A stretch of 61,148 nucleotides of DNA. Origin: an uncultured candidate division Zixibacteria bacterium (lineage in GTDB: Bacteria; Zixibacteria; MSB-5A5; UBA10806). The position numbers and the translations under genes were made by a program. A model generated the notes under the pieces. That model ran no database searches and had not been told where the DNA came from. It saw only the letters and a program-made list of their open reading frames with translations. Shown piece by piece: positions 53,744 through 61,148 of this stretch (within the stretch, counting starts at the first letter, position 1; every line of letters starts with the position of its first letter). The stretch spans positions 1 to 61,148 of the forward strand of contig CAWFQL010000007.1 of assembly GCA_963817915.1 (NCBI GenBank). The letters run 5' to 3'.

Positions 53744-55057
53744 ATGAAAAAACTTCTCTTCGTTGCCCTGCTTTTATTGATGTTATTCGGTAGTGCTTTT
53801 GCAGGGAAGACGAATATCTACACCCTCTCAAACGGCATGCAGGTAATCCTAAAGGAAAACCATGCCATGCCCCTGATATCATCGGTCGTTGTCGTAAGAG
53901 CGGGCAGCAAATACGAAAATGACCAGAATAACGGATTTACCCATCTTCTCGAGCATATGCTTTTCAACGGCACCGAAAAGCGAACCCGTCTGGAGCTAAA
54001 TGAAGGCATCAAAGATTATGGCGGGTATATCAACGCTTTCACCAGGCAGGAAATGACCGGATATTTGATTGTAATACCTGCCGAATTTATCGATGAAGGA
54101 CTTGATCTACAATCGGATCAGCTATTCCATTCAATCCTGCCGGAAACTGAATTCCCGAAAGAACGAGATATAGTCGCGGAAGAAATCAAAAAGGATAATG
54201 ACGCCATCGATAATGTCGCGTCGGATTATTTTAATTCCGTAGTATTCGCCGGCACCCCTTACGCCAGGCCGGTAATCGGGTATGATTCCACTATCCGCAA
54301 TGTCAGCCGCGATGAAGTGATGAAGTATTATAAAGAGCATTATGTCCCGAATAATATGATCGCCCTTATTATTGGCGATTTTGAGACAGTTCAGATGCTG
54401 GAAAAAGTAAACAGATATTTCGGATCGATCCCCAGAGGCGAGCTTCCCAAGCTTGCCGAATTCAATATCAATCCGCCCTACGGGACAGAAATTCATGTAA
54501 AGAAATATCCAACTGATGTGACTTATCTCCAAATGACTTTTCCGGCGCCGCTATTTAGCGACCCTGACTATTATGGATTCGATATTTTTTCGCAGATTCT
54601 GAATTCCGGTGAGTCATCTCCCCTCAATCAGGCTCTTACATCAGGAAACGATCCGCTCGCGGTTGAAGTCTCGGCATCGCTTGAAATTCAAAAGGAGTAT
54701 AGTCTTCTTAATATTTCGATTAAAACCGACAAACCGGATAAAATACAGGCCGCGATTGACACTACTGTTCAATTCTTAAAAAGATTTTCATCCAGCAATT
54801 TCACACAAGCGGACTTAAATCGAATAATTGTTCCGAGCAAGGTAAATGAGATCAAGCTCGAGGAAAAACTCCATTACTACGGTATTATGAAGGCTCCCTA
54901 CCTTGCGACCTGCGGATATGATTTCCTGGAAAATTATATCGATAATCTTTCGGGAGTGAAGCCTGAAATGGTATCGAAAGCCGCAAAAAAATATTTTTCC
55001 AGTCCGCAATATATTGCCTGCGCGCTTGAGCCTGATTCGACGGAGGTGAAAAAATGA
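53744..55057 (+). CDS. M16B zinc peptidase, catalytic subunit
   Basis: HLLEHMLFNGT (HxxEH), NAFT, ERDIVAEE and YVPNNM, with a signal peptide. Confidence 0.95.
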   Translation: MKKLLFVALLLLMLFGSAFAGKTNIYTLSNGMQVILKENHAMPLISSVVVVRAGSKYENDQNNGFTHLLEHMLFNGTEKRTRLELNEGIKDYGGYINAFTRQEMTGYLIVIPAEFIDEGLDLQSDQLFHSILPETEFPKERDIVAEEIKKDNDAIDNVASDYFNSVVFAGTPYARPVIGYDSTIRNVSRDEVMKYYKEHYVPNNMIALIIGDFETVQMLEKVNRYFGSIPRGELPKLAEFNINPPYGTEIHVKKYPTDVTYLQMTFPAPLFSDPDYYGFDIFSQILNSGESSPLNQALTSGNDPLAVEVSASLEIQKEYSLLNISIKTDKPDKIQAAIDTTVQFLKRFSSSNFTQADLNRIIVPSKVNEIKLEEKLHYYGIMKAPYLATCGYDFLENYIDNLSGVKPEMVSKAAKKYFSSPQYIACALEPDSTEVKK

Positions 55058-56418
55058 ATTCGCCCATTAAATTGATAAAGAGATATTTTAGGGTAATTTG
55101 CTATGCCGCGTTAATCTTGGCGACTTTATCGGGATCATTATTCGCGCAGTCTGGCAACAAATACGATAAGTTTATTCATGAAATCCTGCCAAATGGTCTC
55201 GACCTCATAATCAAGCATAATCCCGATAGCAAGGTTTTCGCTATTAATATACTTGGTAAAAATCGCTCGGCTAATGAACCAGTTGGCAAGGACGGCATCA
55301 CGGATTTTGTTAATCGCATGTTGGTCCTCGGTGCCGATGGTATGGATGCCGCCACATTACAAAACAGACTCGATGATATTGGCGCAGTGATTACCGCCAA
55401 CGATAATCCGTATATACCTTACGATGATCGCTATACAACCCGTTCATATTCGTTTATCAAATTCGAGACTATCGATGAATACGCATCTTCAGCGACAAAA
55501 TTGCTTTTCCAAATTGCCTGCAAGCCGGATTTCCCTCAGGCCGAAATTGATAAAACTAAAAAGAAGGTAATGGGAATCTATCGCATGTACTCGGGCTCAA
55601 CGGTTCAATCATGTCGGGATTTGCTATATAGAAATTTATTCGCCGGATTTCCATTCGAAAAAACTGAAGTCGGTAATCCAACAACGTTCAATACATTTAC
55701 GCGTGATGACCTTGTTGCCTATCATAAACATTTCTACGCGCCGAATAACATTATTATGGCGGTGGCGACCAGTATCGACCCCGATACAGTGAAAGCCTGG
55801 ATAATGAATACATTCGGGAAAATGCCTAAAGATCCTTCCGTCTACGCCACCATGAATGTCCCGCCGAAGCCGCAGGGACTCAAAGAAGTCCATCAAGAAA
55901 TGGAAAAAGAGCAGATTTATATCTATTTAGGGACTATTATCCCCGGACTGAAATCACCAGACGCCTCCGCCATCGATATGGCATCATCGATAACCTCATC
56001 GAGAATGGCTTTGAATCTTCGAGAGAAAAAGGGGTTCGCTTATTCAGTCGGTATGGGTGTAGACTTTATGCCTGATTTTGGATGGGCCGCGGCCGCTATC
56101 GGCACTAGCCCGAAAAATCTAATTCCCGCCAAAGAGGGAATGATCGCAGAAATTAATGGCATGAAGGACGCGGAACCATCTCCAAAAGAGCTTCAAACAG
56201 CCCAAAACTCAACATGGGGCTCTATGCTTTTGGCCCGCGCTTCACGCATAAACCAGGCGTATTATATGTGCAGAAATGAGTTCCTTGGAGTCGGGTATGA
56301 TTATGAAGAAGATTATCTTGCCAAGATCAGGAAGGTCTCACCCGCCGATATTCAAAGGGTAGCCAAAGACTATTTTGACACTGAAAATATGGTTATCGCG
56401 ACTGTAGGCAAAAAATAG
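55054..56418 (+). CDS. M16B peptidase, non-catalytic partner subunit
   Basis: HxxEH is replaced by DFVNR. Retains FYAPNN and SSRM..NLREKKGFAYSV (R/Y pair). Confidence 0.9.
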   Translation: MNSPIKLIKRYFRVICYAALILATLSGSLFAQSGNKYDKFIHEILPNGLDLIIKHNPDSKVFAINILGKNRSANEPVGKDGITDFVNRMLVLGADGMDAATLQNRLDDIGAVITANDNPYIPYDDRYTTRSYSFIKFETIDEYASSATKLLFQIACKPDFPQAEIDKTKKKVMGIYRMYSGSTVQSCRDLLYRNLFAGFPFEKTEVGNPTTFNTFTRDDLVAYHKHFYAPNNIIMAVATSIDPDTVKAWIMNTFGKMPKDPSVYATMNVPPKPQGLKEVHQEMEKEQIYIYLGTIIPGLKSPDASAIDMASSITSSRMALNLREKKGFAYSVGMGVDFMPDFGWAAAAIGTSPKNLIPAKEGMIAEINGMKDAEPSPKELQTAQNSTWGSMLLARASRINQAYYMCRNEFLGVGYDYEEDYLAKIRKVSPADIQRVAKDYFDTENMVIATVGKK

Positions 56419-56435
56419 AATATTTTGTCATTCAA

Positions 56436-56470
56436 ATAAAAAGGGCGTCAAATCGACGCCCTTTTTTATT
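56436..56470. terminator. bidirectional intrinsic terminator
   Basis: AAAAAGGGCGTC-aaatc-GACGCCCTTTTTT between convergent genes. Confidence 0.85.
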
Positions 56471-56486
56471 CTATATTTGTCTAATA

Positions 56487-57230
56487 TTACATAGGCGGAT
56501 AAATTAAAGTCTGCAGTCCGGGCTCCGCCACTCGATAAAGAGTAAGGGCATCCTCGACCTGCATATTAAGTGTAATTCTGCTTTCTCCAAATGGACTTCT
56601 GAGGACTCTTCGTATTTCGATCATAGTATTCTTATAATTGGACACAGGCTTGCCGCTGATATCGGTTTTAATTTCAAGTATTAAACCGTCCTCCCATAGA
56701 AGCTGGAATTTTTCAGGCAGCTCGCGCTGGAGCAGGTCGGGATTAACCCTGACCGCTTCGCCAACAATCGCCAGTACCGAATCAGGAGTCTTACCTTTGG
56801 CGGAGAAGAGATGCTTTGCCACGAGGGGTCTTACAAGAATATCATCACTCCCCTCGAACCGTTTCATGAATTCCAGCATTTGCGAAGTATCTGTAGTGGC
56901 CCAATCCATCGGATAATTCCAGACAACCACGCCCTTCATTTTCAGTTTTAATTTGCCCTTCTTGAAGTCGAAGACCAAATATGGTTTTTCGGTTTTCGCC
57001 AGCGCCAACTCGGATTTTATCAAACGATATTCCAATTCGGCCTTAGGGCGATTCCATTTTTTGTCGCTCTGGACACCCCTTTCCGCGGCTTCATGTCCCT
57101 TACGGCCGCAGGCCACAAACGCCATTGAGCAAACCAATAGAAAAGGTATGGCAAGTCTTTCTATTCTCGAAAATTTCGGAAAATTAAAAAATGTAAACCG
57201 CTGTTCCAACTTTGGCCCTGTCAAATACAT
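56487..57230 (-). CDS. lipoprotein with a degenerate L,D-transpeptidase-like fold (start uncertain)
   Basis: Lipobox FVAC. YLVFDFKKGKLKL and the C-terminal RITLNMQVEDALTLYRVAEPGLQTLIY parallel YkuD, but the His/Cys motif is absent. Confidence 0.6.
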   Translation of the reverse strand: MYLTGPKLEQRFTFFNFPKFSRIERLAIPFLLVCSMAFVACGRKGHEAAERGVQSDKKWNRPKAELEYRLIKSELALAKTEKPYLVFDFKKGKLKLKMKGVVVWNYPMDWATTDTSQMLEFMKRFEGSDDILVRPLVAKHLFSAKGKTPDSVLAIVGEAVRVNPDLLQRELPEKFQLLWEDGLILEIKTDISGKPVSNYKNTMIEIRRVLRSPFGESRITLNMQVEDALTLYRVAEPGLQTLIYPPM

Positions 57231-57834
57231 ATTTCAAATCATCGGTACCCAGACGAACACAGCCGTGCGTTACGCTAATACCTAAAAGCCGTTCGTAAAT
57301 AGTCCCATGAATAAAATAGCCGTTGCCGAATCCCATAGCGAAATCGCCGAGCATTTCAGGATCGTAACGTTCATTTTCGTTCTTGGGAATCTTCTCGCCC
57401 TCTTCAATAAATGCCCAATCGGGTTTCCGCCACCAGGGTTGTTTCAGCTTGCTGTTAATTTTAAATGCACCGTGCGGTGTGTTAAAAATCCATTTACGGC
57501 CGGTGACACTATCGATCACCTCGCCGCCGGAACCGGTAGATGCTGTCCCGCGAAAATATACGGAATCTTCTGAGCGCAATGAAAGCTTGTTGGCGTGTGT
57601 ATTGATAACGATATATTGTCCAAACGGCCTAAGTTTGGCTAGCGCATCGCGAGCCTTCTGAAGCTCTTTCTGGGCAAGTTTATCGTCCTGAGGTAATTTT
57701 GCCTGAAGAGAATCGCTGAATTCTTCAGCATCGGCAGGCGGCCTCTGTGTAAGGACAAATGTCCCCAGAAGCATAATTCCAAAAAATAGCCCAAGGCCTA
57801 TAAGCAAAATCAAGACCCAACGTTTCATGGCCAA
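57184..57834 (-). CDS. membrane-anchored L,D-transpeptidase (YkuD)
   Basis: N-terminal TM, TPHGAF, IHGT...SVTHGCVRL and VGTAVYIF. Confidence 0.93.
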   Translation of the reverse strand: MAMKRWVLILLIGLGLFFGIMLLGTFVLTQRPPADAEEFSDSLQAKLPQDDKLAQKELQKARDALAKLRPFGQYIVINTHANKLSLRSEDSVYFRGTASTGSGGEVIDSVTGRKWIFNTPHGAFKINSKLKQPWWRKPDWAFIEEGEKIPKNENERYDPEMLGDFAMGFGNGYFIHGTIYERLLGISVTHGCVRLGTDDLKYVFDRAKVGTAVYIF

Positions 57835-58928
57835 ATATCCGATCTTCGCACGATAGTCACAGGCATGCCCACCGTTGCATATTGCATTATACTATCCATT
57901 TGATTATTTGTTACGGCTACACAGCCATCGGTCCAATCGTCATTCCGACCGCCATTACCATGAATTTCGATCAATGCTCCTATGCGAGCATATCGGGATA
58001 TTATACCTTTTGATTTATTCTCAGAGAATCTTTTTTTATCAAGTTGATTGGGATAATTTATAAGGAGCGCTTTATAGAATTTACTTCCATTATGCTTTGT
58101 TTTCGTAACTATATATTGGCCTTCAGGCGTAGCGCCATCTCCCGAAAAAAACTTTTGCTTCCCGGAATTATACCCGAGTTCGCAATCGAATTTGCGGATA
58201 ACCTTGCCGCTTTGGACTATATACAATTTATGCGCTGACTTATCTACTATAATCGCCGGCGAGCCGTTCGCCCTGGAATTATCGATTGTCTCCTGCACCC
58301 ATCGGCGCCATATTCTTATTTTTTGCGCTTCGTCATTAGCATATTCATTGAGTACCTGGCTTAGTTTACTTAATGATTCCCTGCCGCTTCGAACAGCTTC
58401 TATGGCCGCTACGAATTCGCCTTTGATAATCAGCTGCTGGCTCATTTTGAGAGCCAGATCGGCGGTCGACCAGTATCGTTCTGCGTTGAAATTAGCTAAT
58501 GCCCCATCGAGCGCTTCTCTATAATTAGTGAGTTCGTTTTTTAAGCCTTCGCGGGCATTCTCCGCCTGCGTGTCCAATTCCATGTATCTGTCTTTGGCGT
58601 CGATCGCGGCTTTGTTGGCGGTCTCGTACGCGATACTTAATATTGAATCGGCGTTATGATAATTGCGGAATGGAGCCAGACGGCCTTTTTGTCTGGCGAT
58701 TTCCAGATTGCCCTTTTGAAGCAGGCTTTCCGCTTCCCTGTATTGCGTCTCGGCAAATTTGATTGCGCCGGCTCCCTCGGCCAATTGCAATGCCAATCGA
58801 GCGCGATGCATCGATGAAATCGGCGGTTCCTGGCAACTCGCGATAATTATCGAAACTCCGCTTAGTGCAAGGGCAATATATTTTATTGTGTTGATTGTTT
58901 TCAAGATTAAACTAAGATGATTTATCAA
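57825..58928 (-). CDS. lipoprotein: DUF4398-like helical domain + L,D-transpeptidase (YkuD)
   Basis: Lipobox IASC, IIVDKS, GDGATPEGQY, INYPN and IEIHG...WTDGCVAV. Confidence 0.92.
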   Translation of the reverse strand: MINHLSLILKTINTIKYIALALSGVSIIIASCQEPPISSMHRARLALQLAEGAGAIKFAETQYREAESLLQKGNLEIARQKGRLAPFRNYHNADSILSIAYETANKAAIDAKDRYMELDTQAENAREGLKNELTNYREALDGALANFNAERYWSTADLALKMSQQLIIKGEFVAAIEAVRSGRESLSKLSQVLNEYANDEAQKIRIWRRWVQETIDNSRANGSPAIIVDKSAHKLYIVQSGKVIRKFDCELGYNSGKQKFFSGDGATPEGQYIVTKTKHNGSKFYKALLINYPNQLDKKRFSENKSKGIISRYARIGALIEIHGNGGRNDDWTDGCVAVTNNQMDSIMQYATVGMPVTIVRRSDIWP

Positions 58929-59004
58929 TGATGATTCGGATTTTCCGGGAAGGGCCGATCTAATTTCGGCCCATTCCCATAGATACTTCTTTTAATCCGA
59001 TAAT

Positions 59005-59607
59005 CTACTTCTTAACGCCAGCCTTCTTAGCCTTTGCTGCATCGATTTCGGTAATAATACTCTGTGCCTTTGCCATAACTGTTTCCAGCTTGCCTTTTGC
59101 AACGAGGAACTTACCTGCGTCAAAATCGGCCTTCGCTTCGGCGTAACCGGTATTGACACCGGCCAGATCTGCCTTAATCAATTCGATATCGGCCTTGCTG
59201 CCTTTGCCGCGCGGTGCTTTATCCAGAGCCTTGGTTGCCGCATCTATATCAGCTTGGGCCTTGGTCAGCATATCCATTACTGCCAATCTGACTTTTTCCT
59301 TCTCAGCCTGAGCCTCGGTTACAGCCTTCTCCGCGAGAGCCTGGGCTGCGACATACATATCCTTAGACTTGCCGTAGCTTCTGAAAAGAGCGAACTTGGA
59401 ATCTTGTTCCGTCTTTGCAGCATTGGCGGCGTTAAGGGTGTCAGCGGCTATGCGGTAAGCATCGGGAGCATACTGCTCGGCCTCTGCTGTCTTGGCAGCC
59501 GTAATGGCGTTGTTAGCATTCTGCATTTCGGTCTCTGGCGGTTTGCTGCAACCAACAACCAACAAAAGGGCGATCACAGCCAACACAATTGAAACGCGCT
59601 TGAACAT
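59005..59607 (-). CDS. Ala/Lys-rich all-helical lipoprotein (DUF4398-like)
   Basis: Lipobox VVGC, AKTAEAEQYAP motif, AAAGGA RBS, ends AKKAGVKK. Confidence 0.88.
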   Translation of the reverse strand: MFKRVSIVLAVIALLLVVGCSKPPETEMQNANNAITAAKTAEAEQYAPDAYRIAADTLNAANAAKTEQDSKFALFRSYGKSKDMYVAAQALAEKAVTEAQAEKEKVRLAVMDMLTKAQADIDAATKALDKAPRGKGSKADIELIKADLAGVNTGYAEAKADFDAGKFLVAKGKLETVMAKAQSIITEIDAAKAKKAGVKK

Positions 59608-59993
59608 TTTGAATTTCCTTTCTTTCCGGTTTACACTTCAAAAAAAATCAGACATGTGCGAGCCCGGTTTGCTCACGCCTGCCTATTCCAGTACTCTTAG
59701 TCAATACATTCCGTGATAAATGCTGGTTAAAAATGATATACTAAAACTGTCTTTCGTCCTTTCTCCTTTTCTTTGATGTTCAACTCGATATTTTTCATTC
59801 AGTTTCATTCAAATCAACATAGATTTTCGGGGCTATTAATATATTGTCATTTCCTTGATGTCAAGATTTTTTTCTGATTTATTCTCGGCAAGTCCTGTTG
59901 CTGCTCAAACCCTCGTCTTCAATATTGCAAAAATTATCTATGCTTTTCTGTCTCGCGAATATCTATAAACTCGAGAAACTATCGCTGTGATGC

Positions 59994-61148
<1,155 letters not shown>

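Follow-up and report, generated by a model that had tools for sequence, protein, structure and literature searches.

A conserved four-gene module in Zixibacteria combines a rod-shaped lipoprotein with YkuD-family proteins and is a candidate wall tether of a design distinct from Lpp

In Escherichia coli, a lipoprotein strut of ~8 nm, the 56-residue trimeric coiled coil Lpp, is attached to the cell wall by the YkuD enzymes LdtA, LdtB and LdtC and detached by DpaA, also named LdtF or YafK. Lpp is confined to part of the Gammaproteobacteria according to a study that also reports that Lpp-less Acidobacteria and Bacteroidetes have DpaA-like enzymes whose substrates are unknown, and that leaves the role of these enzymes in Lpp-less phyla open (PMC8263019). 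Here we describe a module of four genes, p1 to p4, at positions 56487..59607 of a DNA stretch of 61,148 nucleotides from an uncultured candidate division Zixibacteria bacterium (assembly GCA_963817915.1, contig CAWFQL010000007.1), referred to below as the window. Like the E. coli system, the module appears to bring together a lipoprotein strut of about the same length and YkuD enzymes that join and cut. It differs in that all components are encoded in one operon, the hydrolase bears a rod of its own, a dead paralogue is an obligatory component, and the terminal lysine of the strut is not conserved. The strut protein p1 is unrelated to Lpp, and is predicted to be a monomeric tandem three-helix-bundle rod of 180 residues. 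We tentatively propose, as a possibility still on the doubtful side, that the module is a wall tether of new design in several Lpp-less diderm phyla (Zixibacteria, Calditrichota), in which a spectrin-like rod would be stapled via an internal loop lysine by a transpeptidase that needs a dead paralogue as its heterodimer partner to be active, and in which a DpaA-type amidase would use its own rod as a ruler.

Proteins other than Lpp can also be joined to the wall. In Dickeya dadantii, the inner-membrane protein OutB is attached by Lpp-type Ldts, and this attachment is reported to need a C-terminal lysine within an Lpp box, of which the p1 family has no conserved counterpart (PMC12274547). Coxiella burnetii LimB is a lipoprotein joined to the stem peptide via an internal lysine (PMC8263019, PMC11841132), and the enzyme that attaches it is described as unknown (PMC11841132). 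LimB is a precedent for the reading proposed here, as it combines a non-terminal lysine with an Lpp-less diderm; those accounts describe no operon of the present kind. Lipoproteins with a two-bundle helical rod like that predicted for p1 are exemplified by Borrelia burgdorferi BB0323 (N-terminal domain), which is required for outer-membrane stability and cell fission (PMC5462797), and by Leptospira LipL71, which comprises DUF4398 and LysM domains. Unlike the proteins of the module, both carry a non-covalent wall-binding LysM domain and have no YkuD partners. We found no printed description of the four-gene module in a literature search that covered sources other than subscription journals and bioRxiv supplements. 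The same search returned no paper on the function of DUF4398, nothing relevant on heterodimers of catalytically inactive YkuD lipoproteins, and none on peptidoglycan or outer-membrane lipoproteins of Zixibacteria.

The four open reading frames (ORFs) marked in the initial annotation are real, and their positions, membrane anchors and overlaps are as described there. All four are encoded on the minus strand, arranged head to tail in the order p1 (59005..59607; 200 aa, lipobox VVGC with Cys20, C-terminus KAKKAGVKK), p2 (57825..58928; 367 aa, lipobox IASC with Cys32), p3 (57184..57834; 216 aa, N-terminal transmembrane helix) and p4 (56487..57230; 247 aa, lipobox FVAC with Cys41). The last three overlap, p2 and p3 by 10 nt and p3 and p4 by 47 nt, and p1 is separated from p2 by a gap of 76 nt that folds as a stable stem-loop.

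This arrangement is strongly conserved. Close relatives bear Zixibacteria labels, and one locus (L042) is labelled as Caldithrix abyssi. Of 80 species-level genome loci, 71 reach far enough to reveal the full order, and all of these have p1-p2-p3-p4; the remaining nine stop at contig ends or, in the case of L006, have p2 and p3 merged by the ORF caller. A further 80 more divergent loci were taken from metagenomes, with identical copies kept in, and p2 and p3 follow p1 in 40 of the 41 that have at least 2 kb downstream of p1. The conserved order, which the initial annotation had made a check of its proposal, supports its view of a self-contained module. No fifth conserved gene was found in the flanks of the 80 genome loci, where the largest clusters comprise 21, 13 and 11 loci and include antisense ORFs ~75 nt from p1. 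In a single metagenome locus (L163), p1 is followed directly by p3 and p4, without p2.

In a sample of 201 genomes from the phylum, a p1 match was detected in 102 and a YkuD match in 104. Strong p1 matches occur in 86 genomes, 84 of which also have YkuD; 20 have YkuD without a strong p1 match, and 95 have neither. Within its own family, the module was found in one of nine other genomes. Since it was not found in about half of the phylum genomes, nor in most of its own family, the module is dispensable, an accessory unit whose gain or loss concerns all of it at once. The genome from which the window derives (94% complete) contains no Lpp, no YkuD gene beyond those of the module, and four OmpA-domain genes; p3 is its sole YkuD protein of the canonical, transpeptidase type.

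The p1 protein was modelled by AlphaFold2 (AF2) with a predicted local distance difference test score (pLDDT) of 97.2 and a predicted template modelling score of 0.87. The model has five helices, at residues 5-20, 28-49, 59-109, 118-143 and 147-178 of the mature protein, which are predicted to form two up-down-up three-helix bundles joined through one common 51-residue helix. The N-terminal bundle belongs to DUF4398 (PF14346): the Pfam match of p1 itself (E 1.5e-4, 22.6 bits) is below the gathering score of 27.9, many close homologues carry the domain, and we judged p1 a member on sequence and three-helix bundle fold together. The NCBIfam LipL71 model likewise matches residues 6-82 (E 1.5e-4). 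A sequence search of the PDB with p1 gave no E-value below 0.36, and a Foldseek search with the model gave zero matches at E ≤ 0.001. Structural relatives were found only through VIA, which matched Pseudomonas aeruginosa PA2901 (4fm3), the best structural match to the first bundle, to residues 1-103 (Z 12.3, root-mean-square deviation (rmsd) 3.0, 93 aligned residues, 25% identity), and the BB0323 N-terminal domain (6rjx) to the whole model (Z 10.5, in a range common for helical bundles; rmsd 6.1, 149 aligned residues). Residues 83-171 are matched by antiparallel three-helix bundles. PA2901, a protein of unknown function (PMC12893005), differs from p1 in being a 13-kDa single bundle that lacks the second bundle and the loop region described below. 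From helix lengths and bundle topology, p1 would be a rod of ~8 nm with the lipid anchor at one end, and both the loop between the third and fourth helices and the C-terminus at the opposite end. A search for longer proteins containing p1 found one case, a 353-aa fusion to a peptidylprolyl isomerase, which hints that p1 mostly stands alone. The initial annotation had called p1 unrelated to Lpp, and homology between the two can indeed be ruled out, as p1 has no PF04728 match at E ≤ 1 and scores 24 bits against NF040598 (cut-off 43), mostly over the signal peptide.

When 410 distinct family members were aligned to the p1 profile, position 135 was Lys in 403, Arg in two, Ser in two and a gap in three, which makes K135 the most conserved residue of the family, equal to the lipobox Cys and P24. 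It lies in an A-P-x-G-K-G loop (A131-P-R-G-K135-G; 59200..59217, minus strand) between helices 59-109 and 118-143. As the loop connects helix 4 with the long helix, the model would place it at the distal tip of the rod, beside the basic C-terminal tail. The consensus of the p2 rod has no A-P-x-G-K loop. As a control, we examined 20 stand-alone p1-like paralogues, of which ten are from genomes lacking a YkuD match, five are from genomes that have YkuD at another place, and the other five are second copies; they form a few related groups and do not represent 20 independent events. P.GK is absent from the whole sequence of each of the 20, and no p2, p3 or p4 gene lies within ~3 kb of any of them. 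Most of them end in a basic tail, including those in YkuD-less genomes. It is therefore the loop, and not the tail, that tracks the enzymes. That the lysine is practically never turned into Arg suggests, at the level of sequence, a requirement for its chemistry or for a highly specific pocket, and K135 appears to be a better candidate for attachment, or for docking, than the terminal lysine.

The stand-alone paralogues (L171-L190, e.g. G176:C31:10354-10860) are lipoproteins of 175-209 aa that are distant from p1 (E 1e-22 to 1e-31), and lack both the A-P-x-G-K loop and a KFALFRSY motif. The latter belongs to a second conserved patch of p1, SKFALFRSY (residues 70-78, window 59374-59400), which is common to the rod of p2, where its counterpart is RLAPFRNY. 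Its residues F72, R76 and Y78 are kept in 378-401 of the 410 family members, and Y46 in 400. The patch is located where the rod carries its lipid anchor, and may be a contact site for the membrane or for one of its proteins.

The basic tail of p1 (AKAKKAGVKK; 59008..59037, minus strand) had been taken by the initial annotation as the site of wall attachment, an idea that was to stand or fall with conservation of the terminal lysine. The lysine is not conserved. Among the 120 closest homologues, 96 end in K, but the 71 full operons end in K in 39 cases, R in 14, M in 13 and other residues in five, while 149 distant cluster representatives include 31 with K and 49 with R. In 147 non-redundant homologues with genomic context, the last residue is K in 85, R in 34, M in 14, H in four and another in ten. 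The share of K in the tail declines with GC content (rho -0.41, p 2e-7), a trend that is less steep for the remainder of the protein (rho -0.24), and 23 of the 48 tails at a GC content of at least 0.6 end in Arg. Lysine makes up about the same share of basic termini (85/119) as of basic residues elsewhere in p1 (0.72-0.80). The last eight residues of the 147 homologues hold ~3.2-3.8 basic residues, and at least one Lys in 142; the five tails without any Lys are accompanied by p2 and p3 wherever the contig reaches far enough. Furthermore, p2 and p3 have intact catalytic motifs irrespective of the last residue of the tail, with R, M, H and C included. What the tail conserves is thus charge, in the form of three to four basic residues, and not lysine. 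As a C-terminal lysine is reported to be required for attachment of the Lpp type (PMC12274547), an Lpp-like mechanism cannot be the conserved function of the family.

One clade of p1 has Cys-containing C-termini, such as CKAYEAKGKKCM or KGKKCPMGM (loci L039, L040, L043, L047, L048, L051, L052, L054, L055, L058, L061, L145 and L159). These tails recall the redox-active -RICK end of Salmonella LppB (PMC12681736), and could possibly be closed into a loop by a disulfide, or link one molecule to another, at the tip of the rod.

The second protein, p2, combines a p1-like rod with a YkuD domain (Pfam E 1.9e-16). Its N-terminal domain is homologous to p1, as had been noticed in the initial annotation (BLASTP E 1e-9, 25% identity over 130 residues), and the p1 profile reaches positions 3-193 of 199 on p2-like ORFs from other genomes. 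The assignment of the YkuD domain to the YafK/DpaA subgroup, also made there, is borne out by several features. Two residues after the catalytic Cys (Cys336 in the motif TDGCVAV, codon 57921-57923), the Arg of transpeptidases is replaced by Ala in a GC[VIL]A motif found in 74 of 74 loci. All five PDB profile matches of p2 are YkuD proteins of the hydrolase type, namely DpaA (8ikr, 1.3e-8), Csd6, Pgp2 (two sequences) and Bd1075. In the 8ikr alignment, the invariant K227 of p2 (mature numbering) falls on DpaA Lys83, and a Tyr or Phe falls on Tyr109, so that p2 shares with E. coli DpaA the reported markers of the DpaA/YafK group: Ala or Asn two residues after the Cys, and equivalents of Lys83 and Tyr109 (PMC8263019, PMC10653827). 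The D-Ala pocket of LD-carboxypeptidases holds a Trp (Trp158 of Csd6), which is Met in DpaA (PMC10653827); p2 has an invariant Glu (IEIHG) at this position, and we rejected the reading of p2 as a D-Ala-specific LD-carboxypeptidase of the Csd6/Pgp2 type on this ground. The score of p2 against the DpaA/YafK equivalog model NF040599 is 30.4 bits, against a cut-off of 365. By its sequence, p2 is therefore best described as a putative YkuD hydrolase of the DpaA/Csd6 type mounted on a p1-like rod.

The initial annotation had described p3 as a membrane-anchored L,D-transpeptidase and p4 as a lipoprotein with the outline of such an enzyme and no catalytic His or Cys, and both descriptions agree with our results. 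The YkuD domain of p3 (PF03734) is recognised with an E-value of 1.2e-20 (75 bits, cut-off 23.4), and its catalytic motif H190-G-C192-V-R194 (Cys codon 57259-57261) is invariant in 40 aligned sequences and present in 71 of 71 loci. In the PDB, p3 is matched best by an L,D-transpeptidase from Klebsiella (4lzh, 6.8e-9), and by sequence it is a canonical L,D-transpeptidase anchored by its transmembrane helix. Pfam assigns p4 to no family and detects no YkuD domain, yet hhalign aligns it with the p3 family over 153 columns (probability 95.2%, E 2.6e-8), with THGCVRL of p3 facing ESRITLN of p4, such that the catalytic His and Cys are both replaced. An AF2 model of p4 (pLDDT 86) gave Foldseek matches that are nearly all L,D-transpeptidases, albeit weak (E 4e-4 upward, TM-score 0.31-0.39). 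Taken together, p4 is a dead YkuD paralogue of p3 that has kept the fold, with a conserved surface, and lost the catalytic residues.

Modelling of hetero-oligomers, which had been suggested from the outset, sharpens the scaffold role once given to p4 into a predicted heterodimer with p3. The complex was predicted with an interface score (ipSAE) of 0.77 (0.75, 0.78 and 0.77 in separate runs), compared with 0.00 for the best of three controls. This mark is attained by 116 of 157 solved pairs and by two of 215 mismatched pairs, a calibration that is only rough, own alignments having been used. Contacts agreed by at least 79% between runs, and the pLDDT of the partners was at least 80. The prediction supports binding of p3 to p4, in what would be a first case of an L,D-transpeptidase that has a dead paralogue as its partner. 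The helix after the membrane anchor of one protein runs parallel to, and pairs with, that of the other (54-24, 58-27/28, 61-31/32 and 65-34/35), which would place p4 in the same membrane as p3, the inner membrane.

The stem-loop between p1 and p2 (58929..59004, with the inner stem at 58947-58978, minus strand; no T-run) confirms a hairpin that the initial annotation had seen at ~58948-58977. It has a folding energy of -28.5 kcal/mol (z -3.83), and none of 200 dinucleotide shuffles was equally stable. Hairpins with z below -2 are found 3' of p1 in 69 of 78 loci, as against three of 78 control segments inside p1, and those of relatives have a different sequence and similar stability. Such conservation is in keeping with production of p1 at a higher level than the enzymes.

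We consider it plausible, though short of probable, that p1 is a strut reversibly and covalently fastened to peptidoglycan through K135. According to this proposal, p3 and its dead paralogue p4, each anchored in the inner membrane, would work together as a heterodimer, and p3 would form an acyl-enzyme with the stem peptide and hand the peptide to a lysine at the tip of p1. The acceptor would be K135 rather than the terminal lysine. The link between p1 and peptidoglycan could be cut again by p2 as a DpaA-type hydrolase, whose active site would sit level with the tip of p1 because p2 carries its own copy of the rod. The hairpin after p1 would raise the abundance of the strut above that of the enzymes. 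Of the tether, attach, edit and scaffold system put forward in the initial annotation, the logic of the module, its synteny, the type of p2 and the identity of p3 have stood, and attachment through the terminal lysine has not (K in only 85 of 147 homologues). If a tether of this new design is real, the long-sought substrate of DpaA-like enzymes outside Proteobacteria would be identified, and if the link is covalent, an undescribed tether would underlie envelope mechanics across much of the FCB group and its neighbours. The module in any case offers a concrete candidate substrate for DpaA-like enzymes, with a specific residue, K135, and four defined proteins.

Several points weigh against this proposal. 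Gene content, folds, conservation patterns and the predicted p3-p4 pairing are what was found; the geometry of the rod, the membrane assignments and, wholly so, the covalent bond with its site are what we infer, and so is the exposure of K135, which follows from the placement of its loop. An invariant loop lysine could equally well be explained as a residue for non-covalent docking or as a structural residue, and the version of the proposal that uses the terminal lysine fails its own test. That p1 and the enzymes occur together is in part a trivial consequence of their common operon and of the relatedness of the genomes, which are not independent samples, and the module was not found in 99 of 201 phylum genomes or in eight of nine genomes of its own family. 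Being the only transpeptidase-type YkuD protein of its genome, p3 may simply make 3-3 cross-links. The rough calibration of the p3-p4 score and the commonness of Z-scores like that for BB0323 add to these reservations.

In the strongest alternative, p1 is a non-covalent strut that spaces a membrane from the wall and touches peptidoglycan with its cationic tip, while p3-p4 make 3-3 cross-links and p2 trims stem peptides in local remodelling; the genes would travel together because all their products act at the same place. We regard it as rather unlikely, if well worth weighing. It sits well with a tail that conserves charge and not lysine, with the basic tails of paralogues in YkuD-less genomes, and with the position of p3 as the only transpeptidase-type YkuD of its genome. 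BB0323, the nearest structural analogue, and LipL71 join such a rod to a non-covalent LysM domain (PMC5462797, PMC5406399), and some DpaA homologues are reported to be grouped with LD-carboxypeptidases by MEROPS (PMC8263019). However, this alternative leaves unexplained both the rarity of Arg at K135 (2/407) and the restriction of the loop to operon-linked copies. Trimming by p2 fits poorly with the lack of the D-Ala-pocket Trp of LD-carboxypeptidases, and YkuD is rarely found without p1 in the phylum (20 of the 104 YkuD-positive genomes).

The loop of p1 could instead dock non-covalently onto p2, onto p3 or in the dead cleft of p4, and so activate or position the enzymes. A regulator or adaptor of this kind would resemble the outer-membrane lipoproteins LpoA and LpoB, which activate penicillin-binding proteins (PBPs). 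Such a role would be consistent with a loop that is present only alongside the enzymes, with a dead YkuD fold whose surface is conserved, and with the pairing predicted for p3 and p4. The hairpin, on the other hand, suggests an excess of p1 that would be unusual for a stoichiometric regulator, and we consider this explanation improbable. Even if the covalent link proposed above proves false, a rod lipoprotein and wall enzymes would still share a specific interface, marked by the invariant lysine loop.

An Lpp-like link from the epsilon-amine of the C-terminal Lys200 to the stem peptide is the least credible explanation, for although the window tail ends in KK as do Dickeya Lpp and OutB (PMC12274547), most of the closest homologues end in K and nearly all tails contain a Lys, K ends only 39 of the 71 full operons, its share among basic termini is that of the remainder of the protein, five tails are free of Lys, and R, M, H and C endings all occur with intact p2 and p3.

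Part of the module is present twice in the assembly. Window positions 57809-61106 are duplicated at the end of another contig (C3:164825-168128, locus L089), and the two 3.3-kb copies share 97.6% identity, with 68 mismatches and 10 gaps. The p1 protein is identical in both, and p2 is intact in the window and truncated to 233 aa in the C3 copy. Conversely, a gyrB gene on the minus strand of the window (59994-61147) is broken up there into frames 60674-61147 and 59994-60722, which overlap, and forms a single open frame in C3. The gyrB split and the p2 truncation are probably assembly indels and not biology, and the overlap of contig ends suggests a strain mixture or error-prone contig ends.

Downstream of the module, two M16-family-like peptidase genes with signal peptides and a 4-nt overlap are found on the plus strand (53744-56418) and converge on it; this neighbourhood is not conserved among related loci. 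Between p4 and the convergent M16 peptidase gene lies a terminator-like hairpin flanked by an A-run and a T-run (56438..56466). A further terminator-like hairpin with a run of eight T is found on the minus strand at 59640-59666, and the start codon of p1 follows only ~35 nt further on; a TTGACA box resembling that of sigma-70 promoters is located near 59857-59862. The leader of p1 may have considerable length and structure, or the promoter of p1 may be of an unrecognised type.

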